In this document: in pieces, positions 6,188 through 52,276 of the stretch
Layout of the letters: every line of letters begins with the position of its first letter
Position numbering within the stretch: the first letter of the stretch is position 1
From: Actinomycetota bacterium
GTDB taxonomy: Bacteria; Actinomycetota; Thermoleophilia; Gaiellales; Gaiellaceae
Direction: 5' to 3'
Length of the DNA: 64,000 nt
NCBI GenBank assembly: GCA_046731605.1
Contig: JBKPLL010000056.1
Coordinates: forward strand, 1,664-65,663
The notes under the pieces: generated by a model
What the model was told of the DNA's origin: nothing
Databases searched by the model: none
What the model saw: only the letters and a program-made list of their open reading frames with translations
Made by a program: the position numbers and the translations under genes

Positions 6188-6591
6188 AAGCGCGGCTCTT
6201 CACGGACGGCGGTGCGCGAGGCAACCCAGGCCCGGCCGCCTACGGCTACGTGCTCGAGGCGGAGGACGGAACGGTGCTCGCCGCACACGGCGAGGCGATC
6301 GGCGTCGCGACGAACAACGTGGCGGAGTACCGCGGTCTCGTCGCCGGTCTGGAGCGCGCCGCCGAGCTGCAGCTGGGGGAGGTGGAGGTCGTCTCCGATT
6401 CCGAGCTGCTGGTAAAGCAGATGAACGGCGAGTATCGGGTCAAGAACGAGGCGCTGCGCGAGCTCTCCCTGCAGGCGGCGCGGCTTGCGAGGCAGGTCGG
6501 AACGGTGCGCTACACGGCCGTCCGGCGGGAGCACAACGAACTCGCCGACCGCCTGGTGAACGAGGCTCTGGACGCAGCCGACCTCGGCTAG
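6184..6591 (+). CDS. rnhA: ribonuclease HI family protein
   Basis: 135-aa track ORF. GTG start overlaps the upstream stop. Motifs DGGARGNPGPAAYG...NNVAEY...SDSELLVKQM...NELADRL. Confidence 0.85.
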   Translation: MKARLFTDGGARGNPGPAAYGYVLEAEDGTVLAAHGEAIGVATNNVAEYRGLVAGLERAAELQLGEVEVVSDSELLVKQMNGEYRVKNEALRELSLQAARLARQVGTVRYTAVRREHNELADRLVNEALDAADLG

Positions 6592-18435: not shown

Positions 18436-19674
18436 GTGAGCCTGTCACCCGAGCGGACCGTTGCGGAGCTGCGCGAGCTGCAGGAGCTGACCGGCGACGA
18501 GAACGGATCCCAGCGCGTCGCGTGGACCGAGACGTGGGAGCGCGCACGCGTGTGGCTCCGCGAGAAGGTCGCTGCGACCGGGGCGGAGGAGGAGATCGAC
18601 GAGGCGGGGAACCAGTGGTTCACGCTGCCGGGAGCGTCCGAGCGCGCGCTCCTGATCGGCGGCCACATCGACTCGGTACCGAACGGCGGCTGGCTCGACG
18701 GCTGCCTCAACGTGCTCGCGGCGGTGGAGGTGCTGCGCCGGATCGCCGAGGAGGGGACACCGCCGCTGACGATCCGCCTCGTCAACTGGGCCGACGAGGA
18801 GGGCGCCCGCTTCGGCCGCTCGCTTTTCGGCTCCTCTGCGGCAGCCGGTTCGATGGGCGACCAGGACGAGCTGCGGCAGCGCCGCGACGCCGACGGGATC
18901 GCGCTCCCGGACGCCCTGGCTGAGCACGGAGTCGATCTCGACCGGGCGCTCGAGGCCCGCAGGCAGCTCGAAGGCGCGGCCGCTTACCTCGAACTGCACA
19001 TCGAGCAGGGCCCCGTGCTCGAGTCGCTCGACCTGCCGCTCGGCGTCGTCCTCGGCACCTTCGGCGTCGAGCGCCACCAGGTCACGTTCCGCGGCCAGGC
19101 CGCACACGCCGGCTCGACGCCGATGGACAAGCGCCGCGACGCGCTCGCCGGCGCCGCCAGGCTCGAGCTGAACATCCGCGAGATCGCGAAGCAGACGCCG
19201 GGCGGAGGGGTCTGCACGATGGGCAGAGTCGTCACGAAGCCCGGAATCGTCACCTCCGTCGTCGAGACCGCCGAGTGCCTGCTCGACCAGCGCCACCTCG
19301 AAGCGACCGAGCTCGCCGGAATGCTCCGCAGCGCGGAGACGGCGTCGCGCCAGTTCGCCGACGAAGAGGGGATCGAGGTCGAGTGGGAGAAGGTCTGGTC
19401 GATCGAGCCGATCCCGTTCGACGACGGGCTGATCGAGCTCGCCGACGAGTCGATCCGCGAGGTCGCGGGCTCCTCGCACCGTCTCCCGTCAGGCCCGCTG
19501 CACGACGCCGCCGAGGTGGCGCGTGCGGGGATCCCGACCGTGATGCTGTTCGTGCAGTCCCTCCGGGGTCTCTCGCACACGAAGCTCGAGGACACGAAGG
19601 AGGAGCACCTCGAGCTCTCGGTGCAAGCCCTCGACCGGCTGACCACGAAGGTGGGTCTCTTCGCAGAGACGTGA
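18436..19674 (+). CDS. M20-family Zn-dependent amidohydrolase (N-carbamoyl-amino-acid / beta-ureidopropionase / allantoate amidohydrolase type)
   Basis: 412-aa track ORF with GTG start. Motif GGHIDSVPNGGWLDG. Divergent from the dihydropyrimidinase gene with a 24-nt gap. Confidence 0.85.
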   Translation: MSLSPERTVAELRELQELTGDENGSQRVAWTETWERARVWLREKVAATGAEEEIDEAGNQWFTLPGASERALLIGGHIDSVPNGGWLDGCLNVLAAVEVLRRIAEEGTPPLTIRLVNWADEEGARFGRSLFGSSAAAGSMGDQDELRQRRDADGIALPDALAEHGVDLDRALEARRQLEGAAAYLELHIEQGPVLESLDLPLGVVLGTFGVERHQVTFRGQAAHAGSTPMDKRRDALAGAARLELNIREIAKQTPGGGVCTMGRVVTKPGIVTSVVETAECLLDQRHLEATELAGMLRSAETASRQFADEEGIEVEWEKVWSIEPIPFDDGLIELADESIREVAGSSHRLPSGPLHDAAEVARAGIPTVMLFVQSLRGLSHTKLEDTKEEHLELSVQALDRLTTKVGLFAET

Positions 19675-19988
19675 CTCCCGCTCAGCTACGGCGGCATTGC
19701 CTGAAGCTCCCCGAGGCCGAGGAGACGTTTCCGTTCGGCCCCGAGACGTCCGTGTTCAAGGTGGGCGGGAAGATGTTCGCGCTCGCGCAGCTGAAGCGCG
19801 AGCCGCTGAAGGTGAGCGTCAAATGCGAGCCGGAGCTGGGCGAGCAGCTGCGTGGGACGTACGACGAGATCGAGCCCGGCTACCACCTGAACAAGCGCCA
19901 CTGGCTGACGGTGATGTGCGGCGGCGCAGCGCCGGATGAGCTCGTCCGCGAGCTGGTGGCCGGCAGCTACGAGCTGGTCGCGGCGTAG
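19671..19988 (+). CDS. MmcQ/YjbR family DNA-binding protein
   Basis: GTG 19671 overlaps the upstream stop (GTGA). 105 aa: LKLPEAEETFPFGPETSVFKVGGKMFA...HLNKRHWLTV. Confidence 0.75.
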   Translation: MTPAQLRRHCLKLPEAEETFPFGPETSVFKVGGKMFALAQLKREPLKVSVKCEPELGEQLRGTYDEIEPGYHLNKRHWLTVMCGGAAPDELVRELVAGSYELVAA

Positions 19989-19998
19989 GCTCGCCCGC

Positions 19999-21129
19999 GT
20001 GCCGGGCGGGGAGCGAATCGGCGGGCTCGCGACCGCCGGCGGGATCGCGATCGGAGTCGCGGCGGGGTGGAACCTCGCAGCGCTCGGACCCGTCGCCACC
20101 CGCGAGAGTCACGCCTACGGCGTGGGCCTCGCCACGATCGGCCTCTTCGTCACCGTCCAGTTCGTGATGCACGGGGCGATGCAGGTGCCCGGCGGCCGCG
20201 CCGCCGACCGCTGGGGCGCTCGGCGGAGCACCGCCATCGGGCTTGCAGTGCTCGCGGTCGGCAACGCGGTGGCGCTTCCCGCCGCGACGCCGGCGCTCGG
20301 CTTCCTCGGCCGCGCGATCGTCGGAGTCGGGACCGGGCTCGCGTTCATCGGTGGCTCGGACTACATCCGCGCGCACGGCGGCTCGGCGACCCTGCAAGGC
20401 CTCTACGGCGGAGCTTCGGTGCTCGCCCCCGGCGTCGCGCTCGCGCTCATCCCGCTCTTCGCAGAGTGGACGGGCTTCCGGGCGCCGTACATCTCGACCA
20501 TCGGCGTCGTCATCGTTGCCGCCGTGCTGCTCTGGCTCTCGCCGGACACGCCCCGGATCGCGCGGCGGGCCGGGGAACGGCTCGACTGGAGCTTCGTCCG
20601 TGACTCGCGCCTGTACCGGTTTGCGGCGATCCACTCCTTCTCGTTCGGCTTCAGCGTGATCGTCGGCAACTGGGTCGTGACGCTCCTCGAGCATCACGGG
20701 CAGTCGAAGCCGGCGGCCGCGGCCGTCGGCTCGCTGACCCTGCTGCTCGGCTTCTTCACCCGGATCGCCGGCGGCTCGCTCCTGCGGCGCCCGAACGCGG
20801 ACCGGATCATCGCCTCGAGCCTCGTTCTCGGTGGCGCCGCCGCGATCGTGCTCACCTTGCCGCTGTCGCTGCCGGCGTACGTCGTCGTCGCGGCGGTGCT
20901 CGGCCTCGCGGCCGGTGTCCCCTTCGCCCGGGCCTTCACGGGCGCCGCCTCGGCCCGCCCGGACGGCCCCGGAGCGGCCGTCGGCTTCGTCAACGCCTGG
21001 GCTGCGCTGACGATCGTCGTGGGCACCCCGCTGGTAGGTCTCACCTTCGCGATGCCGGGCGACGGCAGACTCGGATTCGTCGTCCTCGGCGGCCTGGCGG
21101 CGCTGGCCTCGCTCGCGACGCCGCGGTAG
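19999..21129 (+). CDS. MFS transporter
   Basis: GTG 19999 in track ORF 19936..21129. About 12 hydrophobic segments. MFS loop motif GGRAADRWGARR. Confidence 0.8.
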   Translation: MPGGERIGGLATAGGIAIGVAAGWNLAALGPVATRESHAYGVGLATIGLFVTVQFVMHGAMQVPGGRAADRWGARRSTAIGLAVLAVGNAVALPAATPALGFLGRAIVGVGTGLAFIGGSDYIRAHGGSATLQGLYGGASVLAPGVALALIPLFAEWTGFRAPYISTIGVVIVAAVLLWLSPDTPRIARRAGERLDWSFVRDSRLYRFAAIHSFSFGFSVIVGNWVVTLLEHHGQSKPAAAAVGSLTLLLGFFTRIAGGSLLRRPNADRIIASSLVLGGAAAIVLTLPLSLPAYVVVAAVLGLAAGVPFARAFTGAASARPDGPGAAVGFVNAWAALTIVVGTPLVGLTFAMPGDGRLGFVVLGGLAALASLATPR

Positions 21130-23900: not shown

Positions 23901-23971
23901 GGCGCCTTGGCCGAGTGGTTAGGCATGGGTCTGCAAAACCCAGTACACCGGTTCGACTCCGGTAGGCGCCT
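23901..23971 (+). tRNA. tRNA-Cys (anticodon GCA)
   Basis: Acceptor GGCGCCT/AGGCGCC, anticodon arm TGGGT-CTGCAAA-ACCCA, T arm ACCGG-TTCGACT-CCGGT, discriminator T. Confidence 0.9.
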
Positions 23972-24004: not shown

Positions 24005-24277
24005 GTCAAGGCTCGCGCGTTCCCAAAGAACCCGCGCGAGGATGAGACGTTCGATGCCCGCTTCCTCGCGTAGGCGAGGAACGAGCATGCCGAGGGCGTC
24101 TATCGCGAACCGTTCGCCGTAACGGTCGGACGGCTTCGGGTGAAAGTACGTTAACCCGTCGACGTCGAAAAAGGCGTGGGGCACATCGCGCTCTTCGAGA
24201 AGTTCCATGGTCTCGAAGGCGACGGCCGTCTTTCCGACACCGACAGGCCCGGTAATGAGAAGAACTGGCAGCGACAT
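24005..24277 (-). pseudogene. 3'-truncated P-loop NTPase/kinase gene
   Basis: ATG 24277, Walker A GPVGVGKT. Protein-like sequence stops near residue 91 (about 24005). The nominal track ORF (23774..24277) then reads through the terminator and the tRNA-Cys gene. Confidence 0.5.
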
Positions 24278-24298
24278 CGTGCTGATTATCCGAGCCGC

Positions 24299-24330
24299 GG
24301 AGCCAGTGTTCTGGAATGACCACTGGGCGC
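24299..24330 (-). repeat. module-boundary repeat, copy M1 (type A)
   Basis: Minus-sense GCGCCCAGTGGTCATTCCAGAACACTGGCTCC. Lies 21 nt upstream of the P-loop gene ATG and is followed by GATAAT. Confidence 0.7.
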
Positions 24331-24447
24331 TGCCACGAATGTTGGACGTGGCCCGAAGACGCCAGCGGCCTCGACCGACGAGTCAGCGCTGAAGGATGAT
24401 CCGCGAGCGCCCAATCTCATCCCGTGTCGCGTCCCAAGGAGGCAGTG

Positions 24448-24732
24448 ATGTACGCAGTCGTTCGCAGCTGGTCTGGCGATGGTGCTTCGGAACTGTTTGA
24501 TCAGCTCGAGCAGAGAAACGACGAGATCAAGGAACTCATCGGAGGGGTGCCCGGCTTCGTCAGCTACACAGCTTTTCGGATGAAGGAAGGTGGCAGCACT
24601 GTCACTGTCTGCCAGGACAAAACCGGCACAGACGAGTCCTCTAGGCGTGCCGCGGAATGGGTCAAGGAGAACATCAGCGCCACTACCGACCCACCCGTGA
24701 TCACTGAGGGCAGTACGGTCGCTCACTTCTAG
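24448..24732 (+). CDS. ABM-like (dimeric alpha/beta barrel) small protein
   Basis: ATG 24448 with AAGGAGG 6 nt upstream, inside track ORF 24424..24732. 94 aa: MYAVVRSWSGDG...VPGFVSYTAFRMKEGGSTVTVCQDKTG. The only plus-strand gene in the array. Confidence 0.75.
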   Translation: MYAVVRSWSGDGASELFDQLEQRNDEIKELIGGVPGFVSYTAFRMKEGGSTVTVCQDKTGTDESSRRAAEWVKENISATTDPPVITEGSTVAHF

Positions 24733-24760
24733 CGCCTGGACACAGTCAAGAGCAACCGCT

Positions 24761-24795
24761 GGCCTGAGCCGGTGTTTCGGACTGACGCCTGAGCG
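24761..24795 (-). repeat. module-boundary repeat, copy M2 (type A, diverged)
   Basis: Minus-sense CGCTCAGGCGTCAGTCCGAAACACCGGCTCAGGCC. Lies between the multicopper oxidase stop and the ABM-like gene stop. Confidence 0.65.
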
Positions 24796-24815
24796 CAGGT
24801 TGTCAGGCTAGGCGG

Positions 24816-26519
24816 TTACGGCTCGACCGTGAACGGGCGCATCATGTCGTTGTCTTCGTGCTCGACGATGTGGCAGTGGTGGACGTATGTCTGCGGTGCG
24901 GTCACGTTGGCGGGTAGTTCGAACTTGGCGCGGATGGTGGTGAAGTAGCCGGGGTCGGCCTTGACGGTGTCTTTGAAGCCGCGTTCGCTCCGGTCGGGTG
25001 GCTCCATCGGTCCGGTCGCAAATGGGGTGGGGTCGATTCCTCCGGGGACGCCGCCCCCGCCCGCCGGTTCATAAGCCTCCTCGTAGGCTGCCGCGTCGAA
25101 CGGTGTGCGGCCGACCACCTGGAAGGTGACGAGGTGGGTGTGCATGGGGTGGGTATCCGCGGTCAAGTTGACGTAGACCCAGTCCTCGACTGTGCCCACT
25201 TTGGGTGTCTCTGTTACCGGCGCGTCGAAGCGACTGCCGTTGAGGTTGAGGAACCAGGTTGGCTCGTCGACGTCGATTTCATTCAGGGTGATGTAGCGCG
25301 TCCGTGTCGGCTCCGGCAGCTGCGCTCTTCGTCCCGGCAAGCTCGAGGGAATCCTGCGCGGGCCCGGGCGGCTCACGGAGTGTCCGACCCGGATCTGCAT
25401 CACCTGCTCCAGTGACGGTGCTGGCGTCGAGACCGGCTTCTTGGGGTTGTGGTTCTTCATCATGAGGCGGGCGCCGGGGACCTTGCTGAAGTCGACGAGT
25501 ACGTCTGCTCGCTCGGCGGGTGCCAGGACGAGCTTCGTCACGGGCACGGGTTGATCCCACATTCCGCCCTCGGCGCCGATCTGCCACATCCTCGGTCCGC
25601 CCAAGTCGAGGCTCATGATGCGGGCGTTGCAGCCGTTGAGGATTCGCAGCCGGTACATGCGCGGCTCGACTTCCAGGAACGGCCACACCTTGCCGTTCAC
25701 GAGCATGACGTCACCGAAATACTCGCCGATCCAGGTCGCATCGGGAATGTCGCTGCGCGGGTAGAGGAAGGTCCCGTCCCGGTTGAACTGACGGTCTTGG
25801 ATCACGAGTGGGATCTCGTAAGGGCCACCTGGGATCCCGATCGGATTGGGCTCCTCGCCGGTGTCAAACTCGTCGCGCAGGATGTAGGCCGCCGCAAGCC
25901 CCGCGAACACGTTCAGGCGGGTCGCGCCCAGCCCGTGGTCGTGGAACCAGAGCATTGAGGCGGGCATCTGCGGCCTCTGGTTCGTGTACAGGACGCTCTG
26001 TGTCTCGTCTGGGCCGAAGCCCTCGGGCGTGATCGCAGGGTTGCCGTCGCTGTCGGCGGCGACGAACCCGCCGTGCAGGTGCGTCATCAGCCGCACCTGA
26101 TTACCAAGCGGCGTCAGCCGCGTGTCCACTGGAATCCAGGACGGGTAGGTATCGGGCAGCTCATTCGTGTACCTCACCCGCAGCGGAACGCCGCTCTCAG
26201 CGACCACCGCCATCCCGAACGAACCTGCCTGCCCGGCCAAGCCCGACCCGTCGTCATAGGCCCACAGTGGGGTCGGCGGCAAGTACGGATGCAGCTGGCG
26301 CTCGATTTGAGTCTGTGCGAACTCATACGCGTTCAAGCCGCTCGGCGCCGCCACGACCACGCCGGCCCCAGGCAGCGGAACAGGCTCCAGGTACTTGATC
26401 AGCCTGCCACCCACTCCGGCGCCTGCCGCCGGCACCCGAGCCGACCACGGCAACGCCAACGCGACTCCACCCGCCGCGCCGTACTGCAAGAACCGTCTCC
26501 GTGAAAACCGGGCCTCCAT
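24816..26519 (-). CDS. Tat-exported multicopper oxidase (CotA/bilirubin oxidase-like)
   Basis: ATG 26519 with GGGAGG upstream, in track ORF 24816..26612. Twin-arginine signal SRRRFLQYG. Copper motifs THLHGG, WFHDHG, HPMHTHL, HHCHIVEHEDNDMM. Confidence 0.85.
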   Translation of the reverse strand: MEARFSRRRFLQYGAAGGVALALPWSARVPAAGAGVGGRLIKYLEPVPLPGAGVVVAAPSGLNAYEFAQTQIERQLHPYLPPTPLWAYDDGSGLAGQAGSFGMAVVAESGVPLRVRYTNELPDTYPSWIPVDTRLTPLGNQVRLMTHLHGGFVAADSDGNPAITPEGFGPDETQSVLYTNQRPQMPASMLWFHDHGLGATRLNVFAGLAAAYILRDEFDTGEEPNPIGIPGGPYEIPLVIQDRQFNRDGTFLYPRSDIPDATWIGEYFGDVMLVNGKVWPFLEVEPRMYRLRILNGCNARIMSLDLGGPRMWQIGAEGGMWDQPVPVTKLVLAPAERADVLVDFSKVPGARLMMKNHNPKKPVSTPAPSLEQVMQIRVGHSVSRPGPRRIPSSLPGRRAQLPEPTRTRYITLNEIDVDEPTWFLNLNGSRFDAPVTETPKVGTVEDWVYVNLTADTHPMHTHLVTFQVVGRTPFDAAAYEEAYEPAGGGGVPGGIDPTPFATGPMEPPDRSERGFKDTVKADPGYFTTIRAKFELPANVTAPQTYVHHCHIVEHEDNDMMRPFTVEP

Positions 26520-26622
26520 CTCCGCCTCCCTGGTCGGCTCACCGCAACCCGCACACCCCGGGGACCTGTCCACGCTTACACACAGCCGCCCGACCTCCAT
26601 CCGCGAACACACACACGGCGAA

Positions 26623-26639
26623 CTGCGGAGTCTCCGCAG
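26623..26639. promoter_or_regulatory. perfect 8-1-8 palindrome upstream of the multicopper oxidase gene
   Basis: CTGCGGAG-T-CTCCGCAG, about 105 nt upstream of ATG 26519. An (AC)5 run lies at 26607-26616. Confidence 0.3.
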
Positions 26640-26700
26640 ACATTCGCGGACAACTGGTGAGGCGCAGAGACGACCAGATGGCGGACTGGCCGTAACACTC

Positions 26701-26734
26701 GGCTGGGCCAGTGTTCCGAATGACCCCTGAGCGG
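26701..26734 (-). repeat. module-boundary repeat, copy M3 (type A)
   Basis: Minus-sense CCGCTCAGGGGTCATTCGGAACACTGGCCCAGCC. Starts directly after the cyclase stop codon. Confidence 0.75.
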
Positions 26735-27298
26735 CTAGGCCGTGTCGATGTGTAGTACGCGGAAGATGCGGCGCGGCTCCTCGAACCCCTTGAACTCCAC
26801 CTCGCCCAAGTCTTCGAAGGTGAGACCGGACCCTGCGACGAGGTCGCGGGTAGTAGCGGAAACGAATACCTCGGCTGCTTCTGCCTGGGCGGCGATGCGT
26901 GCCGCGAGGTGCACGGCGATGCCACGCGGTGGCCCGCCGGCAGAGCGTTCCACCTCGCCCGTATGGATGCCACAGCGAACGCGTAGTCCGATGCTTGCCA
27001 CAGCCTCACCAATTGAAAGTGCGCAGCGGATCGCGCGCGCGGGCCCATCGAAGAGCGCGAGGAACCCGTCACCGGCAGTGTCGATCTCCTCGCCACCGAA
27101 ACGAGACAGTTCCTGCCGAACCGCGGCGTGGTGGATGTCGAGTGTTCGTGTCCAGGCTTGGTCGCCCATCCGCTCCAGCGCCTCGGTCGAGCCGACGAGA
27201 TCGGTGAAGAGGATCGTCGCCAGGACTCGCTCGGGCGCGCGCAGACCCAGGACGTCGTCGGCTAGCGGCGGCTCAGGGGGCTGTAGTGGCCCAACCAC
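26735..27298 (-). CDS. stand-alone class III nucleotidyl cyclase catalytic domain protein
   Basis: 187-aa track ORF with GTG start. Metal-binding Asp contexts ILFTDLVGST and IDTAGDGFLALF. Also GIHTGEVE. No sensor or effector domain. Confidence 0.8.
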   Translation of the reverse strand: MVGPLQPPEPPLADDVLGLRAPERVLATILFTDLVGSTEALERMGDQAWTRTLDIHHAAVRQELSRFGGEEIDTAGDGFLALFDGPARAIRCALSIGEAVASIGLRVRCGIHTGEVERSAGGPPRGIAVHLAARIAAQAEAAEVFVSATTRDLVAGSGLTFEDLGEVEFKGFEEPRRIFRVLHIDTA

Positions 27299-27338
27299 GA
27301 TCTGACGCTAACCGTCCTAACGCTCAGGCAGCAGAAGT

Positions 27339-27391
27339 CTCGCCTGGGCCAGTGTTTCGGGAATGGCCCTTGATGCTCAATGACCCTGATG
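27339..27391 (-). repeat. module-boundary repeat, copy M4 (type A with internal partial duplication)
   Basis: Minus-sense CATCAGGGTCATTGAGCATCAAGGGCCATTCCCGAAACACTGGCCCAGGCGAG. Lies 40 nt upstream of the cyclase start. Confidence 0.75.
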
Positions 27392-27401
27392 CCGATGCGA
27401 C

Positions 27402-27827
27402 CTAAGGCGCGTCGCGATTTGCAGCGTTGTCGAGCCAAGAGCCGACCACGATCGACCAGAACTCGGGTTGGGGCTTGAAGCCGAGCGATGCGTAGAAGTC
27501 CTGGGCATCGTCGGTCTGTAGGCCGACGTGCTGGCCTGGCACCTGTTCAAGCAAGTGACGGATCATTGCCGAGGCGATGCCTCGACGCCGGTAGGCCGAG
27601 GCAGTCCACACATCTACCAGGTACGCGTTGCAAACGCCGTCCGAGAGCAGCCGCGCCATCCCGATGATCTGCTCACCGTCCCGAGCGAACGCAACATGCT
27701 GCGACTGCTCGAAGGAGCGACAAAGTGCGTCCGCACTCCGTCCGTTGTCGAAGTCATCCGCCGCCAGATCAGCCTTCGCCTGCACCCAGTCGATGCGCTC
27801 CAGCGAACTATCGATCCGCACCGACAC
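27402..27827 (-). CDS. GNAT family N-acetyltransferase
   Basis: 141-aa track ORF with GTG start. Acetyl-CoA motif A YRRRGIASAMIRHLL. Confidence 0.8.
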   Translation of the reverse strand: MSVRIDSSLERIDWVQAKADLAADDFDNGRSADALCRSFEQSQHVAFARDGEQIIGMARLLSDGVCNAYLVDVWTASAYRRRGIASAMIRHLLEQVPGQHVGLQTDDAQDFYASLGFKPQPEFWSIVVGSWLDNAANRDAP

Positions 27828-27881
27828 ACGCCAACGATCGCATGAAACTGCCCGTCCGATCCAGATGCAGAGGGAAGCACG

Positions 27882-27916
27882 CTCGCCTGGGCCAGTGTTC
27901 CGGAATGACCCCCGAG
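27882..27916 (-). repeat. module-boundary repeat, copy M5 (type A, best copy)
   Basis: Minus-sense CTCGGGGGTCATTCCGGAACACTGGCCCAGGCGAG. Contains the palindrome TTCCGGAA. Lies 54 nt upstream of the GNAT start. Confidence 0.75.
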
Positions 27917-27966
27917 TCTCGCCCCGTGAAGGGGCCGACCCGCACGGTCGTGCAACAGACCTTCGC

Positions 27967-28203
27967 CTAGCGACGGCGGAAGACGAGGACGGCGCCTCCG
28001 AGAGCCGAAATCCCGATTAGGCCGAGGAGTGGGGTTCCCCAATCGGGCGACCTGACGGCGGGGACGGGGGCACCCGGGGGTACATGCCCCGTATAGCCCT
28101 TTGACAGCGGCTCCCGATACGTAGCAACCCACACCACCGCGGCCGCCCCCACACCGAGCAATAGCACTACGACGGCGAGTCGAGCTGCAATGATCCTGCT
28201 CAA
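27967..28203 (-). CDS. 78-aa protein with N-terminal and C-terminal hydrophobic segments and a basic tail
   Basis: Track ORF with TTG start; TACTAT lies 7 nt upstream of it. MSRIIAARLAVVVLLLGVGAAAVVWV...PLLGLIGISALGGAVLVFRRR. Confidence 0.5.
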   Translation of the reverse strand: MSRIIAARLAVVVLLLGVGAAAVVWVATYREPLSKGYTGHVPPGAPVPAVRSPDWGTPLLGLIGISALGGAVLVFRRR

Positions 28204-28239
28204 ACAGAAATAGTACGGCGGTGAGCAGGCGGCGTCACC

Positions 28240-28270
28240 CTCGCCTGGGCGAGCGTCCTCTCACCTGACC
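28240..28270 (-). repeat. module-boundary repeat, copy M6 (type B)
   Basis: Minus-sense GGTCAGGTGAGAGGACGCTCGCCCAGGCGAG. Lies 36 nt upstream of the 78-aa gene start. Confidence 0.65.
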
Positions 28271-28357
28271 GATGATAACTCCGTTCGGCCGCGGCGGTAC
28301 CGCTCGCTTGCGTAGGGGCCGCTGTGTGAGCGACCCCTAACGCGTGGGGCCGCTGGT

Positions 28358-29143
28358 TCAGGAGAGATATCCGCTGGCGGAGACCTCGGCGCTCCACCCG
28401 GACGGTCCACTTCCGGAGACGTCGACGCAGTACTTGTTCCCGTTGCTGCCGTATGCGGTGTAGACGAGCGGTGTCGGGTACGTGATGTTCAGCGACTGCC
28501 CGACCGGGACTGCAACCGTGAACCGCTCAGCCGCGCTGAAGGTTGCTCCGGTGAGGGCGACGCAGTCACCAGAGCTTGAGTCGCTGATGTAGACCTGAAA
28601 GTGCACTGAAACCGATCCTGCGGTGCTTCCGAAGGCGGCGATCGTGATCGAGGTCAGGTTCAGCTTCGCTGGCACCAGGTTCTGATACAGCACATCCTGG
28701 GATCCGGCACTGATGACGACGTCGTTGACCTGGTTCCACGGCTTCGCGGGAGCAGTTACGACGGCCTGACAGGCGACGCTGCCATCACTGTTGACCACAC
28801 GGACGGCCGAGCCCGAAGCGCAGTTTCCGCTCACTCGGCGCTGCAACTGACTCGCCGTCACACCCCCGACTGCGTTCGCGTTCGTCGCACTCTTCGCCGA
28901 GTCAGCGCTCTTGGCGTGGAGTGCCTCTGGCACAACAAGCCCCTTGGGATTGATCTTGACGGCCGTGACCGCGCCCTTCCTGATCTTCGGCGCCGTCACC
29001 GCGTTCTTCTTTAACTGCTTCGTCCCGACACTGTTCTTCGGCAGGCTCGTGGCCGCGTACGTCGTCCCGGCCAGCGCCACGAACAGTGCGATGATCGAGA
29101 TCACGAACGCCGGCCGCGGTGCCCTCAACAGATGCTTGTGCAT
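28358..29143 (-). CDS. secreted/anchored beta-rich protein with N-terminal KxAVTxxKI repeats (fibre-like), function unknown
   Basis: 261-aa track ORF. ATG with AAGGAGG upstream. N-terminal TM/signal segment. Repeats KKNAVTAPKIRKGAVTAVKI. Cys-containing beta-rich C-terminal domain. Confidence 0.7.
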   Translation of the reverse strand: MHKHLLRAPRPAFVISIIALFVALAGTTYAATSLPKNSVGTKQLKKNAVTAPKIRKGAVTAVKINPKGLVVPEALHAKSADSAKSATNANAVGGVTASQLQRRVSGNCASGSAVRVVNSDGSVACQAVVTAPAKPWNQVNDVVISAGSQDVLYQNLVPAKLNLTSITIAAFGSTAGSVSVHFQVYISDSSSGDCVALTGATFSAAERFTVAVPVGQSLNITYPTPLVYTAYGSNGNKYCVDVSGSGPSGWSAEVSASGYLS

Positions 29144-29357
29144 TACCCCTCCTTGGGCTCACCGATGATCGGATCGACTCTCACCAACGCGTACCTGCGA
29201 GTCAAGGCGCGGCGAAAGCGGCAATCCGCTACCCCGATCGACAGGAAGCCGAGCGCTAGGTCCGGGTCGCCTTCAACCCTGACGACGGAAATAGACGATG
29301 CAACCTTATGAGACGCTAAGGCTGCGCACGTCAAGCTCCGCGCCGCCGTTGTACTGC

Positions 29358-29387
29358 GGGCTGGGCGAGCGTCCTCTCGCCTGAACC
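29358..29387 (-). repeat. module-boundary repeat, copy M7 (type B)
   Basis: Minus-sense GGTTCAGGCGAGAGGACGCTCGCCCAGCCC. Begins 44 nt past the dapE stop and lies 214 nt upstream of the 261-aa gene. Confidence 0.65.
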
Positions 29388-29431
29388 GTTTGGGCACGGA
29401 GTAGGTACGGATTCCGCCTAACGGCGCATGA

Positions 29432-30460
29432 TCAAGCCGAAGTCAGGAACCTAGCCAGCGTGTCGTACACCGCGTGCAGGTTCGCAATCGGGATCTGCTC
29501 GTCCTGCCGGTGCGCGTACGCGGTCGCACCGGGGCCGTAGTTGATCGCGTCGATGCCCTGTTCCGCGAACTGCGCGACCGGCGTCCATGCCTGCTTCGGC
29601 GCGACGTCCGGCACGAGCTCACGCAGCCGCTCGACGAGCGGGTTTCCCAGCGCCGGCGGCGCCGAGGGCGAGTTGTGGAGGACGTGGAGCTCGCCGTCCG
29701 GGACGAGCGCGCGCAGCCGTGCCTCGGCCTCGTCGCGCGAGCGACCGGGCGCGAAGCGGAAGTTGAGCTCCGCCGAGGCGAGTGCAGGAACGACGTTCTG
29801 CGCGATCCCGCCTTCGACGCCGACCGCGCTCACCACCTCGCGGTAGACGAGCCCGTCGAGCTCGGCGTCGAGCGGCTCCAAACGTCCGAGTGGCGCGAGC
29901 CCCTCCGCGAGCGCGTGGATTGCGTTCCGGCCCGCCCAGGGGCGCGCCGAGTGCGCGCTCTCCCCGTGGAACTCGACCCGGGCCTGCAGGTTCCCGAGGC
30001 AGCCGGCGTGGAGGATCGCGTCCGTCGGCTCGAGCACGATGGCGAGCTCGGTATCCGCCAGCACGCCGCTCGCGAAGGCAGCGGGAAGCGGGCTCTCCTC
30101 GAGCGCGACCTCCTCGCGTGTGAAGAAGACATAGCGCGCGGGAGCCTGCGCGCGCGCGAGCTCGAGCATCACCGCCACGCCGCCCTTCATGTCGCTGGAT
30201 CCGAGGCCGTGCACCGCCCCGTCGGCGATGCGGCCGGGGAGGTTCTCCTGCGCCGGCACCGTGTCGAGATGGCCCGCGAGGGCGACCGGCGCGGCAGCGT
30301 CACCCCAGACGAGCGCCTCGCCGTCGTCGTAGAGCGGCGCGCCAGGCAGGAGGCTGCGCACGAGCTCCATCGCGTCGCGTTCGCGGCGGCTCTCCGAGGG
30401 AAGATCGACGAGCTCGAGCGTCCGGGCGGCGAGATCGGAATCGGTCATGGCAGGAGTCAT
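29432..30460 (-). CDS. dapE: succinyl-diaminopimelate desuccinylase (M20 family)
   Basis: In track ORF 29432..30916; ATG 30460 (alternative ATG 30448). Motifs GHLDTVP, GSSDMKGG. Confidence 0.85.
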   Translation of the reverse strand: MTPAMTDSDLAARTLELVDLPSESRRERDAMELVRSLLPGAPLYDDGEALVWGDAAAPVALAGHLDTVPAQENLPGRIADGAVHGLGSSDMKGGVAVMLELARAQAPARYVFFTREEVALEESPLPAAFASGVLADTELAIVLEPTDAILHAGCLGNLQARVEFHGESAHSARPWAGRNAIHALAEGLAPLGRLEPLDAELDGLVYREVVSAVGVEGGIAQNVVPALASAELNFRFAPGRSRDEAEARLRALVPDGELHVLHNSPSAPPALGNPLVERLRELVPDVAPKQAWTPVAQFAEQGIDAINYGPGATAYAHRQDEQIPIANLHAVYDTLARFLTSA

Positions 30461-30472
30461 AATGACCGCCGG

Positions 30473-31777
30473 ATGGCGGTGAGACAGCCCGAGCGCTCCT
30501 GGGCGGCCGAGCCCGAGCGTGGGCTCCTCGTTGCCGTGCTCCCACAGGGGGCCGACGGCGCCGACGAGCTGGCCGAGCTCGAGGAGCTCTCGCGGACCGC
30601 CGGTGTCGAGCCGGTCGGCAGGGTCGTCCAGCACCGGCGGCTCCCCGACGCGCGCACGTACGTCGGCAAGGGAAAGCTCGAAGGGCTGAAGCAGGCGTAC
30701 GGCGACGCCGGTGCCGAGGTGCTCATCGTCGACGACGAGCTCAGCCCGCCGCAGCAGCGGGCGCTCGAGAATGCCCTCCAGGCGCGGGTGGTCGACCGCA
30801 CGCAGCTGATCCTCGACATCTTCGCCCAGCATGCCGTCAGCGCCGAGGGAAAGCTCCAGGTCGAGCTTGCGCAGCTCGAGTACAACCTGCCGCGGATGCG
30901 GGGGATGTGGCAGCACCTCGAGCGCCTCGGCGGCGGGGTCGGGACCCGCGGCCCGGGCGAGTCACAGCTCGAGACCGACCGTCGTCTCGCGCGCCGCCGC
31001 ATCACGCTGCTGCGCACACGGCTGCGCAAGCTGAGCCGCCAGCGCGACGTCCGGCGCAAGGAGCGCAAGCGCACCGAGACGCCGACCGTGGCCCTCGCCG
31101 GGTACACGAATGCCGGCAAGTCCACCCTCCTCAACGCGCTCACCGACGCAGGCGTCTCCGTCCGCGACCGGCTGTTCGAGACGCTCGACCCGGTGACCCG
31201 CGGCTTCGAGCAAGAGGGTCGCCGCTATCTCGTCACCGACACCGTGGGCTTCGTCCGCCGCTTGCCGCACCAGCTGGTGGAGGGCTTCGCCGCGACGCTC
31301 GAGGAGACGCTCGTCGCCGACCTCGTCCTGCACGTCGTGGACGGCTCCGCGCCCGAGCAGCGCCTCGTCGAGCAGATCGCCGCGGTCGAGGACGTCCTGC
31401 GGGAAATCGGCGCGAACGAGCTGCCCGTCGAGCTCGTCGTCAACAAGATCGACGCGGTCGACACGCTCGGGCGACGCCGCCTCGCGAACCGGTATCCGGA
31501 CGCGCTGCAGATCTCCGCGCTCACCGGCGAGGGCCTCGACGAGCTCCGGGCACGCGTCGCCGAGCGCTTCGGTGAGCGATTCGAGCGCGTCCGGCTGCTG
31601 CTGCCGTACGAGGAGGGGGGACGCCTGAACGAGCTCTACGCGCTCGGCGCGCCGATCGACGAGCGCGAGGACACGCCCGAGGGAGTCCTCGTCGTCGCGC
31701 GACTGCCGCGCCGCGAGATCCACCGCTTCGCGCCCTACCTCATCGCCGAGGAAGCCCACGAGCGGCGCCGCGCGTGA
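30473..31777 (+). CDS. hflX: GTPase HflX
   Basis: ATG 30473 in track ORF 29474..31777. HflX N-domain. G motifs GYTNAGKST, DTVGF, NKID. Confidence 0.9.
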   Translation: MAVRQPERSWAAEPERGLLVAVLPQGADGADELAELEELSRTAGVEPVGRVVQHRRLPDARTYVGKGKLEGLKQAYGDAGAEVLIVDDELSPPQQRALENALQARVVDRTQLILDIFAQHAVSAEGKLQVELAQLEYNLPRMRGMWQHLERLGGGVGTRGPGESQLETDRRLARRRITLLRTRLRKLSRQRDVRRKERKRTETPTVALAGYTNAGKSTLLNALTDAGVSVRDRLFETLDPVTRGFEQEGRRYLVTDTVGFVRRLPHQLVEGFAATLEETLVADLVLHVVDGSAPEQRLVEQIAAVEDVLREIGANELPVELVVNKIDAVDTLGRRRLANRYPDALQISALTGEGLDELRARVAERFGERFERVRLLLPYEEGGRLNELYALGAPIDEREDTPEGVLVVARLPRREIHRFAPYLIAEEAHERRRA

Positions 31778-48999: not shown

Positions 49000-49006
49000 C
49001 TACGCG

Positions 49007-49237
49007 TCAGGGTCCGAAGTGCTTCCGTCCCCAAGCGACGAGCTCCTCGACATCAGCCGGGTCCGGGTAGTCCATGGGCAGATCGTCGTCTCCGGGCGAG
49101 TATGTGTGCCCGGGCCAGTCCGGCTCGCCCGGGGCGGGGTTCCACGCGAGGCGCCACGCGCCCGCTGCGTCGCCCTGGCAAAGGTCGAGCCAGCCGCGCG
49201 TGAGTCGCTCTCGGCGGTAGATGTGCGTCTCGATCAT
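49007..49237 (-). CDS. hypothetical 76-aa protein
   Basis: ATG 49237 with AAGGAGG upstream, in track ORF 49007..49348. Confidence 0.5.
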   Translation of the reverse strand: MIETHIYRRERLTRGWLDLCQGDAAGAWRLAWNPAPGEPDWPGHTYSPGDDDLPMDYPDPADVEELVAWGRKHFGP

Positions 49238-49399
49238 CCCAAGCCTCCTTCGCCGCAGAGCTGTCGTGTGCGTCAGAAGCCTTTGATGCCCCTGTGTATC
49301 GTCAGCGGGAGCCACAGGCCAATAGCTCAGAGAGGTGCAGTCGCGCAATAGAGCAGGGCCCGCTTTGAGCAGGCCCTTCTCTATTTGTTCCTCCGGTGG

Positions 49400-51001
49400 C
49401 TAGCTGCCGTAGGCGAAGTAGGCGTCCTCGCCGTGACCGCAGCGGCCCGCGAAGCAGGCCTCCTCACGCATGTCGGTCCAGTAGGCCACGACGTGGGTCG
49501 TCCCGGGGACGACCGCGATGTTGCTGTAGTCACCGAGGAAGGTCGTCGCGAACGGGAACGACGGGTCCAGCGTCGTCGCGAACCAGCGATCGTTCTTGGT
49601 CGGATCCGACTGCTGAGTCGAAACCGGGGTGAACGAGTAGCTCGCCGGTCCGGTCTGGGTTGCAAGTGAGTAGTCGTACAGATGGTTGGCCGCGTCGGTG
49701 CCACGGTCGAATGTGCCGATCCGCAGCGTTCCCGACGCGTCGAACGCACCCCACGGCATGAACTGGTCGTTCGAGCGGGCGAGCGCTTGTGGAGCGCTCC
49801 ATGTGCGCCCGTGATCCATCGACTCGCTGACGATCACGTCGGAATTGGTAACAGCTGAGTAGGGGTCGGCAGGCGCAGGCGTCGGGCTGTTCCGCATGTC
49901 TGACCAGACCACGGCGAGGTGGGCCGGATTCGTCGGGTCGGCCGTGATGTTCCCTGCGGCCCAGGTGCGGAAGAGGCTGTCCTGGTAGGTCTGCCGCCCG
50001 AACGCGATCGGGTAGTCGGTCGCTCCGTCGATGGCCTGGGCGACCGGGAACGGTCCGGCGACACGCGCGCCGGTTGCCGGGTCGACCTCGACCGTGTAGT
50101 ACGTGTCGCGGCCGGTGGTCAGGTCGTCGGTGTTCAAAAAGGCGACATAGATCCGCCCGTCGGCAGCGACTGTCGGCACGGAGACGAAGGCCTCGTCCAA
50201 ATCGCCGGAGATGACCCGCGGCTTGGACCACGTCGTACCAGCGTCATGCGTCACCGACGCGTAAATGCGGGCGCTCTCGAACGAACCCTTCTGGCCGAGG
50301 CGGAAGTCGCCGAAGGTGACGATCGCGTTGCCGCGACCCCAGGCTGCGACGTACTCCTTGTCGAGCAGGTCACCGACGCTCGTCTCCACGCCGCTGCCCT
50401 GCGCGATACGGGAAACCGCCCAGCTCTTGCCACCGTCGCCGGAGTTCGCCACGAGCACGTCCGGGTTCTGCGCGTTCACCGGCCCGACGAAGCGGAAGCC
50501 GAGCGTGCCGTAATACGCGTGCCCGGAATCGTCGAACGCGACCGAGGGATCACCGGAGGCCTGGTACGCGGAGTTCGAGTTCAGCGGGTACTCCGTCCAC
50601 GTCTGGCCACCGTCGAACGAGACATGTGCCCGCGAAAGCAGAGTCTCGGACACGTGCCCGCCCCGGTTGATGCCGAGCTGGTAGTCGTTCGCCCCGCCGA
50701 TGATGTTGTTCGGATTCGTCGGGTTGACGGCGATCGACGTCTCGTTGTGCGGCCCGTTGTGCTCGCAGTCAGTGTTGACGTTCGCCGCGGTCGACATCGT
50801 CGTCGAACAGAGCGGCGTGCCGATTTTGACGGCTGGCCCGGTGCCGAACACAGCACTCGTGACCGGCGCAGGCGCGTCGACAGCGTTATGCGTGAAGTCG
50901 ATCGGCTGCGGATCGTCGCCGGCGGTGGCCAGGGCCACCCCGAAAGCAGCGAACGCGAAGAGCGCGACGCCGAACAGCAAGCCGAGCTTGCGATACCTCA
51001 T
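49400..51001 (-). CDS. secreted BNR/Asp-box repeat (sialidase-fold) protein
   Basis: 533-aa track ORF with signal peptide. Asp-boxes SFDGGQTW, SGDGGKSW, THDAGTTW, SMDHGRTW. Confidence 0.8.
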   Translation of the reverse strand: MRYRKLGLLFGVALFAFAAFGVALATAGDDPQPIDFTHNAVDAPAPVTSAVFGTGPAVKIGTPLCSTTMSTAANVNTDCEHNGPHNETSIAVNPTNPNNIIGGANDYQLGINRGGHVSETLLSRAHVSFDGGQTWTEYPLNSNSAYQASGDPSVAFDDSGHAYYGTLGFRFVGPVNAQNPDVLVANSGDGGKSWAVSRIAQGSGVETSVGDLLDKEYVAAWGRGNAIVTFGDFRLGQKGSFESARIYASVTHDAGTTWSKPRVISGDLDEAFVSVPTVAADGRIYVAFLNTDDLTTGRDTYYTVEVDPATGARVAGPFPVAQAIDGATDYPIAFGRQTYQDSLFRTWAAGNITADPTNPAHLAVVWSDMRNSPTPAPADPYSAVTNSDVIVSESMDHGRTWSAPQALARSNDQFMPWGAFDASGTLRIGTFDRGTDAANHLYDYSLATQTGPASYSFTPVSTQQSDPTKNDRWFATTLDPSFPFATTFLGDYSNIAVVPGTTHVVAYWTDMREEACFAGRCGHGEDAYFAYGS

Positions 51002-51144
51002 AAGAGTCCCCCTTCGTTTGCACGACTTGCCGGTAATTACCGAAAGCCCGCGAGACTAACCTCACGGCGAGTTGCTTAGGGCCGTGGCAGCCAACGAGGC
51101 TCGTACGCGCTCACGGAGAGGGCGGCGATAGCTCGCCGCCCTCC

Positions 51145-51288
51145 TCAGACAGCGCGGCCGCGGCCGCCGACGAACCACACGATCACCAGCACGATCAGCA
51201 GGAGTAGCAGCCACGTAGGCAGCCCTCCGATAAGCACGACAAGAAGCCAGATGATGGCGATGAGAACGAGAATTCCAATGAGTGTCAT
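51145..51288 (-). CDS. hydrophobic micro-protein (47 aa), hypothetical
   Basis: ATG 51288 to TGA 51145: MTLIGILVLIAIIWLLVVLIGGLPTWLLLLLIVLVIVWFVGGRGRAV. Below the track cutoff. Confidence 0.3.
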   Translation of the reverse strand: MTLIGILVLIAIIWLLVVLIGGLPTWLLLLLIVLVIVWFVGGRGRAV

Positions 51289-51443
51289 GGTGTGGGTGTC
51301 CCCACGCGAGGGTGACCGTAATCATCTCGATGAGCAATGCAGCAGCCGATACCGGCACTTCCGGCCCAACCGAGCACGTCGGAGACCACCGCGACGTGTC
51401 GCGCGTGTCGCGCGCGTAGACGCAGTAGCGTGAAGCAAGGAGG

Positions 51444-51470
51444 CGGGGCGGCGTCGAACCGAGCCGCCCC
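51444..51470. repeat. partial copy of the tRNA-Pro 3' end, embedded in an 8-bp hairpin
   Basis: cggggcggc-g-tcgaaccg matches 52203-52211 plus 52217-52224 of the tRNA-Pro gene in the same orientation (17 nt identical, 5-nt versus 1-nt linker). It also forms the hairpin GGGGCGGC/GCCGCCCC. Confidence 0.4.
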
Positions 51471-51662
51471 TGGAAAAGTGGAGATGGCTGCTCCCCAGCA
51501 GTTGACCGCCTTTTAGGCGGGATCTCACTTCACCGCTAGCAAATAGGCGTTCGGGCTTCCCAGCGGTCTGCTCGCCGCCGACTCCTAGCCCCAGCGTGTT
51601 GGGCACTCTCCCGCGTTTCGCCGACCTTGCGGCCACGGTCCCGCAGCCCTGTCTGCCGGCTG

Positions 51663-51932
51663 CTAACTGGTTGGGTAGTCAGCGTCGGTGGGATGGAGGG
51701 TGTAACGCTGGCCGAGAACGTCGAGCTGGGCGGGGCCATCGGCGCGGACGCTCACGTGGGCTTCGAGGGCGCTCAGAGCTTCGAGAATCCTTTTGTTGCT
51801 TCGGTCGAGGAAGACCTCGACCCGGCAGCGTCCGTTCTCTCCCTCGATGAGCTCTGGGTCGAATCCTGAGAGCGCCGCGCAGAACGCTTCCGCCGATTCA
51901 CGGCTCGCCGCATGAATTACAAGTGACTCCAT
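51663..51932 (-). CDS. hypothetical 89-aa protein
   Basis: ATG 51932 with GAAGG 5 nt upstream, in track ORF 51663..51977. Moderate GC3. No motif recognised. Confidence 0.45.
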   Translation of the reverse strand: MESLVIHAASRESAEAFCAALSGFDPELIEGENGRCRVEVFLDRSNKRILEALSALEAHVSVRADGPAQLDVLGQRYTLHPTDADYPTS

Positions 51933-51973
51933 TACGCCTTCTAAGTCGGAGCGTAGGCAGCCGCGGTGTTTCG

Positions 51974-52162
51974 TCAACCCCCCGGAGGACTCGAAGCGAG
52001 GAGCCGTTCGAGATCGGCCGCGAGATCGGCTGGTACCAGGAGTTGGCGAGACTCGCGATGTGCGGCTGCGGAAAGATCGTCCCGCTGAGCGTGCGTGAGT
52101 TCGACCGCGAAGGAGCTTGGGCGGACGGCCACGGGCCCGCGCAGCTGCGCGCTTCGTAGCAC
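51974..52162 (-). CDS. possible ribbon-helix-helix-like small protein
   Basis: GTG 52162 (or TTG 52201 abutting the tRNA) in track ORF 51974..52201. The pattern SSFAVELTHAQRDDLSAAAHRE resembles the strand-helix start of CopG/RHH proteins. Weak. Confidence 0.3.
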   Translation of the reverse strand: MLRSAQLRGPVAVRPSSFAVELTHAQRDDLSAAAHRESRQLLVPADLAADLERLLASSPPGG

Positions 52163-52201
52163 TATGCGCGATTGGTTGACTACGGAACCCCTCGATCCCA
52201 A

Positions 52202-52276
52202 TCGGGGCGGCCGGATTCGAACCGGCGACCTTCGGTCCCCCAGACCGACGCGCTAACCAAGCTGCGCCACGCCCCG
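52202..52276 (-). tRNA. tRNA-Pro (anticodon GGG)
   Basis: Minus strand: acceptor CGGGGCG/CGCCCCG, D arm GCGC-AGCTTGGTTA-GCGC, anticodon arm TCGGT-CTGGGGG-ACCGA, T arm GCCGG-TTCGAAT-CCGGC, discriminator A. Confidence 0.9.

Follow-up and report, generated by a model that had tools for sequence, protein, structure and literature searches.

The interval between the tRNA-Cys gene and dapE was examined in a 64-kb stretch of contig JBKPLL010000056.1 from a Gaiellaceae bacterium (hereafter the window, meaning the whole stretch analysed). This low-GC interval was found to be divided by seven copies of a conserved site into seven modules. It is probably an array of small mobile gene cassettes, in which the repeats would serve as double-stranded site-specific recombination sites of a new family, acted upon by a recombinase supplied in trans. 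A preliminary description of the same DNA had likened the layout to a gene-cassette array, and the related genomes lent support to that view: arrays occurred in about 75 of them, modules were found with different neighbours, the breakpoint was located in the core of the site, and the arrays proved to be polar.

Site copies in the window

Five type-A and two type-B copies of the site were located in the tRNA-Cys/dapE interval, all on the + strand and all within 5.4 kb. Direct sequence comparison, repeat analysis and profile search reproduced the number, positions and common orientation given in the preliminary description; its motif length of 30-35 nt, on the other hand, fell short of the full site of ~50 nt. 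The start-to-start spacings are 466, 1938, 641, 543, 358 and 1116 nt, and the last site lies 44 nt from the dapE stop codon. The GC content of the interval was determined to be 0.61-0.67 versus ~0.70 in the flanks, in line with the lower value remarked upon before. The + strand consensus of the five type-A copies is ctcgccTGGGCCAGTGTTCCGGAATGACCcctgagcg, and that of the two type-B copies is CTCGCCTGGGCGAGCGTCCTCTC[A/G]CCTGA. The individual sites are as follows.

24299..24330, + strand: site A1; long (P'-type) arm retained, GCCAGTGTTCTGGAATGACCACTG; short (left) arm degenerate and not recognisable; nhmmer 24.3 bits, model positions 26-53
24755..24795, + strand: site A2; diverged and weak, GCCGGTGTTTCGGACTGACGCCTGAGCG; nhmmer E=0.02-0.3 (0.02 in a window-only search); repeat family D2/D10
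26682..26734, + strand: site A3; central TG 26704-26705; abuts the stop codon of the next gene; nhmmer 42.4 bits
27323..27391, + strand: site A4; central TG 27345-27346; outer motif/tail AATGACCCTGA partly duplicated; nhmmer 34.4 bits; repeat D9
27866..27919, + strand: site A5; central TG 27888-27889; canonical and best copy, GCTCGCC TG GGCCAGTGTTCCGGAATGACCCCCGA; nhmmer 53.5 bits
28225..28268, + strand: site B1; central TG 28246/7; short arm on both sides, CTCGCC TG GGCGAGCGTCCTCTCACCTGA; repeat D3
29341..29384, + strand: site B2; central TG 29362/3; terminal attB-like site, 44 nt from the dapE stop, proposed entry site; repeat D3

The expected count of the 26-nt core in shuffled sequence was 0.00, and A5, an exact match, is the sole window copy within 3 mismatches of the consensus core. 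A profile built from 167 copies of other genomes recovered the window sites and gave no further credible match in the 64 kb, so that the profile search, which detected no copy in the remaining 58.6 kb, agreed with the earlier statement that the motif occurs nowhere else in the window. The two B sites are those closest to dapE and the best A sites adjoin them, while the degraded parts, namely a truncated kinase gene, the one-armed site A1 and the weak site A2, are situated at the tRNA end.

Anatomy of the site

Comparison of the 167 in-register copies delineated a conserved stretch of ~52 nt, yCnGGnGnnAGGACnCTCGCC-TG-GGCCAGTGTTCCGGAATGACCCCTGAGCG. The full site of ~50 bp is composed of a short arm TCAGGnGnnAGGACnCTCGCC, a central TG within the invariant core TGGGCCAG, and a long arm GGCCAGTGTTCCGGAATGACCCCTGA, with lengths of ~44 bp in type B and ~49 bp in type A. 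Read outward from the central TG, the arms form an imperfect inverted repeat in which the inner 12 positions share CCG.TC.CA.G. Both arms are closed by the outer motif TCAGGnG, which is placed 5 bp farther out in the right (long) arm; the similarity of the outer motif was maximal at a shift of +5 (0.46 and 0.41 versus 0.16-0.34 at other shifts). In type-B sites, which are near-palindromic, both arms are of the short kind.

The site was examined as a folded single strand as well. Pairing across 166 copies equalled the expectation from column composition, with neither hairpin nor covariation, and the folding of real copies was no better than that of shuffled ones (z -1.8 to +1.9). The RYYYAAC...GTTRRRY arrangement of integron attC cores was not found. 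These observations bore out the earlier judgement that the copies are not attC sites. An Rfam scan returned no RNA family besides the tRNA, and a known RNA family was thereby rejected for the motif.

In the attachment sites of large serine recombinases (LSRs), the motif of the zinc-ribbon domain (ZD) occupies half-site positions 16-24 in attP and lies 5 bp nearer the centre in attB (Rutherford et al. 2013, PMC3783163). The 5-bp shift between the two arms described here matches this attP/attB half-site rule, which is a geometric resemblance and not a demonstration. Viewed in this way, type A resembles a hybrid of the attL type and type B resembles attB; the layout of the arms suggests a recombinase that, like LSRs, has two DNA-binding modules. 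As an alternative enzyme, a tyrosine recombinase acting on the 8-bp spacer GCCTGGGC could be considered.

Two individual findings concern unusual sites. A clear CA-centred site with attR-like polarity, GGCGCTCGCCCAGGCCAGTGTTCC, was observed in L074 (~6293-6343), inside an otherwise normal array. Three metagenome matches taken as candidates for attP-like long-long sites, which could have pointed to the recombinase gene, were rejected, since each proved to be an array site of the usual kind whose left inner arm varies.

Distribution of the site family

One genome per species was scanned with the pattern TGGGCCAGTGTTN{2,4}GAATGRCC. This exact-core scan, of the kind that the preliminary description had recommended, yielded at least 120 loci from ~75 metagenome-assembled genomes (MAGs), in places with several loci per genome, and the copies formed co-oriented arrays with mostly one gene per unit. 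Among the matches listed, nearly all MAGs are labelled Gaiellaceae, Thermoleophilia or Actinomycetes/Actinomycetota, and four short contigs belong to MAGs labelled otherwise. A 55-position profile detected at least ~380 copies in the 120 loci, up to 13 per 8 kb. In the 120 loci listed, neighbouring copies within 4 kb were co-oriented in 256 cases and opposed in 6, with a median spacing of 638 nt (interquartile range 448-1293); the 256 intervals contained one called gene in 162 cases, none in 47 and two in 35. A scattered, generic element like the repetitive extragenic palindromic (REP) sequences had been named as an observation that would speak against cassettes. The site does have many loci per genome, but these are arrays of variable genes.

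Outside this lineage, searches of IMG/VR viral contigs gave chance hits only for the type-A core and none for the long-long and type-B core patterns, and searches of PLSDB plasmids and INPHARED phages with the type-A consensus likewise gave chance hits only. A phage or plasmid origin of the site was rejected, as no real copy was present in these three collections. A full-text literature search retrieved no paper containing the site sequence and none on cassette arrays of Gaiellales. The site family is previously undescribed and restricted to this lineage.

Module assortment and position of the breakpoint

All-against-all comparison of the loci revealed single-gene segments of 200-1000 nt common to different genomes at 85-99% identity, which are embedded in unrelated flanks and whose homology stops at motif copies. 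The trio L042/L075/L081 is an example, being 98.9% identical over 630 nt with both flanks different. At its left edge the homology begins at TGGGCCAG, and a rare TTCTGG variant of the right arm moves with the module; at its right edge the homology ends just after CTGGGCCAG, followed by three different right arms. A cassette, as read from these sequences, is composed of a long arm, a body and a short arm.

The junction was mapped with motif pairs from different loci, of which 25 share the right flank only, 12 the left flank only, and 1 both. In the right-only pairs, positions 9-14 were identical in 76% versus a background of 36%, and the sequence left of the core was at background. In the left-only pairs the pattern was reversed; position -14, for instance, was identical in 92% versus 27%, and positions 9-14 in 42% versus 36%. 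This flank-specific pattern places the exchange point between -1 and +9, within the invariant TGGGCCAG(T) that holds the dyad centre. Module boundaries are not always clean, as is evident from the pair L032/L067, in which the homology persists through the entire neighbouring right arm.

These junctions bear directly on a different explanation, in which the motif would have come to flank accessory genes as a conserved repeat with a regulatory or structural role (insulator, operator, RNA-end or REP-like element) and modules would be shuffled by ordinary homologous recombination over its ~35 identical bases, without a dedicated recombinase. The core is identical in most copies, so that a RecA-type exchange is conceivable; no recombinase was found near any array; and the many motif loci per genome, with stop codons abutting the sites, are reminiscent of REP elements. 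The breakpoints, however, fall in the central core instead of being spread over the conserved stretch, and the strict co-orientation (256:6), the two-arm dyad geometry with neither hairpin nor covariation, the polar arrays ending in a distinct palindromic variant, and the lack of any copy in the window's ~58 kb of ordinary genes all speak against it. For an operator, a fixed orientation irrespective of gene direction would not be expected. We therefore regard this explanation as unlikely.

Array polarity

In other genomes, type-B sites agree in TG polarity with the A sites present at the same locus. They lie beyond all A sites at the same array end in 28 of 29 cases; counted by side, 80 A sites fall on one and 1 on the other. 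On average, the flank past the B site has a higher GC content (0.680 versus 0.654); in the window this flank is dapE/hflX. L153 is an independent example, in which an array inserted between dapD and dapF is closed by a B-like site adjoining dapD. The site score fell with rank from the B end as a trend only (Spearman -0.21, p=0.06-0.07).

Cassette cargo and gene direction

The 1199 open reading frames (ORFs) of the loci were grouped into 947 clusters, and 150 cassette ORFs matched 83 Pfam families, led by GNAT, cupin, glyoxalase/bleomycin-resistance, methyltransferase, alpha/beta hydrolase, SnoaL and cyclases. Genes for extracytoplasmic function (ECF) sigma factors are also among the cargo, with 13 loci carrying one, many within arrays. 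The larger ORFs in the array loci were identified by Pfam as housekeeping genes.

In the 120 loci listed, 145 cassette genes share the strand of their sites and 131 lie on the opposite strand. Strong Pfam hits were obtained for 5 of 10 randomly sampled same-strand ORFs, indicating that the unbiased direction is not an artefact of gene calling. In both orientations the stop codon abuts one site (median 4-10 nt), and the start is situated ~40-55 nt from the other.

The preliminary description had offered a shared promoter as its alternative, and these counts weakened it. Under that explanation the minus strand of the motif would be an ECF-sigma-type promoter, GGAAC-N16-GTC, of a stress-gene regulon. 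The consensus does contain GGAAC followed after 16 nt by GTC(CT), the minus-sense start codons lie at a median of 38 nt from the site, and ECF sigma genes are frequent cargo. The genes nevertheless face both ways, site A2 is situated between two convergent genes, conservation within the motif is strongest in the spacer and among the weakest at the -10 position. Moreover, polarity, type-B sites and the mapped breakpoint would be left unexplained. A promoter as the principal function is thus quite improbable, and promoter activity may be a secondary property of the site.

Genes and boundaries of the window array

The genes of the array and its two boundaries are as follows.

23901..23971, + strand: tRNA-Cys(GCA) (ARAGORN, Rfam); with its terminator (to ~24004), the distal array boundary
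24006..24277, - strand: truncated P-loop kinase-like ORF; weak AAA/NTPase Pfam hits; 47% identity to an ORF in L034
24448..24732, + strand: 94-aa ABM-like ORF; no Pfam hit; 41% identity to an ORF in L066
24816..26612, - strand: multicopper oxidase (CotA-like) with a twin-arginine translocation (Tat) signal (Pfam); own leader with the palindrome CTGCGGAGACTCCGCAG
26735..27298, - strand: cyclase remnant; codons 1-21 from a RimJ-type GNAT, codons 22-187 the C-terminal class III cyclase domain (Pfam)
27402..27827, - strand: GNAT acetyltransferase (Pfam)
27967..28203, - strand: 78-aa hydrophobic ORF (ORF list); no Pfam hit
28358..29143, - strand: 261-aa secreted protein; no Pfam hit; identical protein on 23 contigs in the same context
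29432..30448, - strand: dapE (M20; Pfam); conserved flank

Both ends of the chain, 44 nt from dapE on one side and a truncated gene at the tRNA on the other, coincide with those described before. The gene identities proposed earlier fared unevenly. Those of the multicopper oxidase, the guanylate cyclase (Guanylate_cyc) and the GNAT were recovered by Pfam, the kinase received weak P-loop hits only, and the ABM-like, 78-aa and 261-aa proteins had no Pfam hit. What had been taken for a minimal class III cyclase turned out to be a remnant produced by deletion, in which the first 21 codons belong to a RimJ-type GNAT and the rest matches the C-terminal domain of much longer hydrolase-cyclase proteins. 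Decay by deletion is thus evident in the array. The ABM-like ORF is the single cassette gene of the window that shares the strand of the sites. In other arrays, the window cassettes have distant protein relatives only.

The kinase cassette lacks its 3' part together with its own 3' half-site, and there is no site between the kinase and the tRNA; it is the last and oldest cassette of the array. This abutment on tRNA-Cys, and that of the L074 array on tRNA-Pro, would suit an origin of the repeats as partial tRNA copies left by tandem island integration (a tycheposon-like accretion at tRNA-Cys). We give such an origin hardly any credence: only ~20 of the 120 loci listed have a tRNA or tmRNA within 8 kb, the motif fits the 3' half of tRNA-Cys at 14 of 21 positions by eye, the site-proximal flank is dapE and not the tRNA, and the units are 0.3-2 kb and contain no integrase.

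Homologues of the window oxidase with 78-87% identity were found in unrelated, site-less contexts, indicating that an ordinary gene appears here as a cassette. The leader palindrome of the oxidase is common to the closely related contigs L158 and L159. In the window CTGCGGAGACTCCGCAG is located at ~26600-26640 (- strand), and a close variant precedes the 87%-identical homologue in the non-array context of these two contigs; it may be a metal-responsive operator that moved along with the gene. In L160 (9214-9838), an oxidase homologue stands beside two tyrosine-integrase fragments and phage-like genes (TerL, Toprim, DUF3631), from which it follows that the oxidase gene is also carried by a different kind of integrated element.

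As for the dapE flank, a 767-aa ORF (29474-31777, + strand) fuses the antisense strand of dapE with hflX. Public gene calls contain the same fusion in some contigs, as a 700-aa 'HflX', and have the two genes correctly separated in others.

Synteny at dapE

The dapE genes of four related species are 88-92% identical. In these four species dapE is followed by an aminotransferase gene, dapD, dapF, miaA, miaB, rny and recX, and by recA too where the locus extends there; L152 has a 104-aa gene inserted between dapE and the aminotransferase gene. None of the genes from the aminotransferase gene to recX, nor recA, is present in the 64-kb window, and the array is thus located exactly at a synteny break (29432).

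Different inserted genes were also seen in different genomes in the dapE/aminotransferase, dapD/dapF, miaA/miaB and miaB/rny gaps of this conserved block. The window itself has a second low-GC variable segment (49000-52200, GC 0.64-0.66) adjoining tRNA-Pro (52202-52276, - strand), which contains a 533-aa BNR-repeat ORF (49400-51001, - strand), several small ORFs with no Pfam hit, and no site copies. L074 (CAVWZB010000002.1), syntenic on both sides, has a five-site cassette array at the place of this segment.

Proposed mechanism

Since the cassette has a long arm at one end and a short arm at the opposite one, closing it into a circle would join the two into a single complete type-A site. We propose that cassettes excise as circles with one type-A site, and that a recombinase encoded elsewhere in the genome would exchange strands at or next to the central TG. 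Recombination of such a circle with the terminal type-B site would yield a type-A site, the inserted cassette and a regenerated type-B site; with type B regenerated, new cassettes would be added at the B end, which here faces dapE, and decay would set in at the opposite end, represented here by the truncated kinase next to tRNA-Cys. Recombination between two A sites would excise or reshuffle cassettes, and recombination between arrays could account for the synteny break at dapE. With reservation, we put forward an enzyme of the serine type as the simplest candidate, on the analogy of arm geometry.

Several points weigh against recombination by a dedicated enzyme. With IntI1, XerD, gamma-delta resolvase, Hin, phiC31 Int and IS608 TnpA as phmmer probes, no recombinase was detected in the window, as the preliminary description had stated, and the same probes and Pfam censuses detected no array-associated recombinase in ~1 Mb of array loci. 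This wider search did produce five tyrosine-recombinase hits in the 120 loci (four with E<=0.01), namely one strong XerD-type gene, at ~6 kb from a site standing alone, and four weak matches, and none of them is placed consistently beside an array. ORF clustering revealed no recurrent array-adjacent gene family, the largest clusters being cargo (cyclases, ECF sigmas and RimJ-type GNATs), and no LSR gene (Resolvase + Recombinase + Zn_ribbon_recom) was found in the window or the 120 loci.

The spectrum of sites and reactions counts on the same side. CA-centred (attR-type) sites are essentially absent, with one clear case in the 120 loci, and no long-long (attP-type) site was found in the 120 loci, the viral contigs or the metagenome scan. 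In addition, the implied A x A and A x B reactions differ from the canonical rules of serine integrases, which allow attP x attB only.

So does the variation within the species. The window belongs to a soil Gaiellaceae species represented by the MAG GCA_036265595.1 and many JGI metagenome contigs that are >99.8% identical. Nine such contigs carry the same cassettes in the same order, and the sole variants among them are deletions that do not end at sites. These variants are confined to the cyclase cassette, as a 119-bp indel and, in L003, the replacement of the cyclase by a RimJ-type GNAT gene; no site-bounded variation was observed at this locus among the same-species contigs, and a look-up of exact DapE matches gave a single contig. 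A fixed gene order had been named as a sign against cassettes, and it was encountered within the species, whereas across genomes modules recur with different neighbours. No circular form was seen, and no precise presence/absence allele of a cassette was found between species representatives.

The data set itself adds three cautions of the same tenor: loci were picked by an exact core match, so that conservation is overestimated; the genomes are MAGs with gene calls from a home-made caller; and the junction mapping is based on 37 pairs.

Two sets of coordinates are recorded here. The indel lies at L001 11912-12032 and the replacement at L003 11845-12271 (with the GNAT cut by the contig end), the breakpoints of both being off-site. 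A 578-aa LSR (Resolvase + Recombinase + Zn_ribbon_recom), the only such gene in any context examined, is encoded at 18830-20566 of the JGI 3300047160 contig carrying P0009, at a variable spot after miaB in a related Gaiellaceae.

On this comparative evidence, we still hold an array of mobile cassettes recombining at these sites to be the likely explanation. As a broader and tentative proposal, Gaiellaceae and related Thermoleophilia might possess a second, independently evolved platform of the integron type. It would consist of promoter-autonomous mini-cassettes with hybrid attL-like sites, a serine-type recombinase that captures and reshuffles them in trans, and many attB-like entry sites among housekeeping genes, each regenerated upon insertion, and it would account for a large share of the accessory genome in a lineage that ranks among the most abundant soil actinobacteria. 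Apart from integrons, to our knowledge, no well-described system accumulates and shuffles cassettes of single genes. If the proposal is true, cassette platforms would have evolved more than once, and a direct handle would be gained on the flow of accessory genes in a dominant, uncultured soil lineage, with the 50-bp site as a searchable signature for mining cassettes in soil metagenomes. Were the enzyme a serine recombinase able to use hybrid sites and to restore its target, a new reaction logic for genome engineering would also be gained.

Comparison with known systems

The likeness to integrons and to clusters of attC sites lacking integron-integrases (CALINs) is extensive. Co-oriented repeats stand between mostly single, unrelated, compact accessory genes; the site is divided between the two cassette ends and would be completed upon circularisation; the arrays are polar, have a distinct terminal site with predicted growth, and occur with no recombinase nearby; and the cargo profile (GNAT, glyoxalase/bleomycin resistance, cupin, methyltransferase) is similar. 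Cassettes are also reassorted independently of one another, and the junction falls within the site (pairs homologous on the right only, 25; on the left only, 12; on both flanks, 1). An array of this layout and cargo might accordingly be read as a fragment of a classical integron, that is, a CALIN with unusually short attC sites, and this we consider exceedingly improbable. An attC site is a folded imperfect hairpin with R and L boxes, whereas the present site is a conserved duplex of ~50 bp with a dyad around TG, which lacks R''/R' cores and whose folding and pairing are at chance level. No IntI, and no tyrosine integrase consistently associated with arrays, was found in the window and the 120 loci. 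The genes have no orientation bias and hence follow no logic of a common cassette promoter (Pc). Many arrays per genome are seated at housekeeping intergenic spots, and IntegronFinder surveys report Actinobacteria, the host phylum, to be without complete integrons (PMC4889954, PMC9024848).

With the att sites of LSRs, the sites share a length of 40-55 bp, imperfect inverted arms around a non-palindromic central dinucleotide, and two arm classes with a distal motif offset by 5 bp like the ZD motif in attP versus attB, a resemblance in geometry only. They differ in that only one hybrid type is present, and the combination of attL and attR flanks with a free attP form was not encountered; the units of 0.3-2 kb, moreover, do not contain a recombinase of their own. 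Composite islands of the staphylococcal cassette chromosome (SCC), built by CcrAB at orfX, also pile up as tandem polar arrays beside a conserved gene.

Small accessory-gene modules, short recombination sites and a recombinase encoded elsewhere are features shared with the pdif/Xer modules of Acinetobacter plasmids. Xer sites are 28 bp long (11-6-11) and alternate in orientation, whereas the present sites are chromosomal and uniformly co-oriented (256:6) and are not known to resemble the dif consensus arms. The systems of REP sequences or bacterial interspersed mosaic elements (BIMEs) with REP-associated tyrosine transposases (RAYTs) are comparable in having a short conserved extragenic repeat just past stop codons in many copies per genome. 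They differ from the present family, which forms no palindromic hairpin, yielded no IS200/IS605-like (Y1) match with the IS608 TnpA probe, and has its copies in co-oriented arrays confined to variable DNA, with independently assorting genes between them.

For this element, the defining features tested of integrons, REP elements, Xer modules and the canonical LSR product pattern all fail, and it is therefore filed as a new kind of cassette platform; on a more cautious reading it could be placed among the integron-like systems as a new variant. It functions in the manner of an integron without being one, and its sites resemble the att sites of serine recombinases but do not follow the phage pattern.

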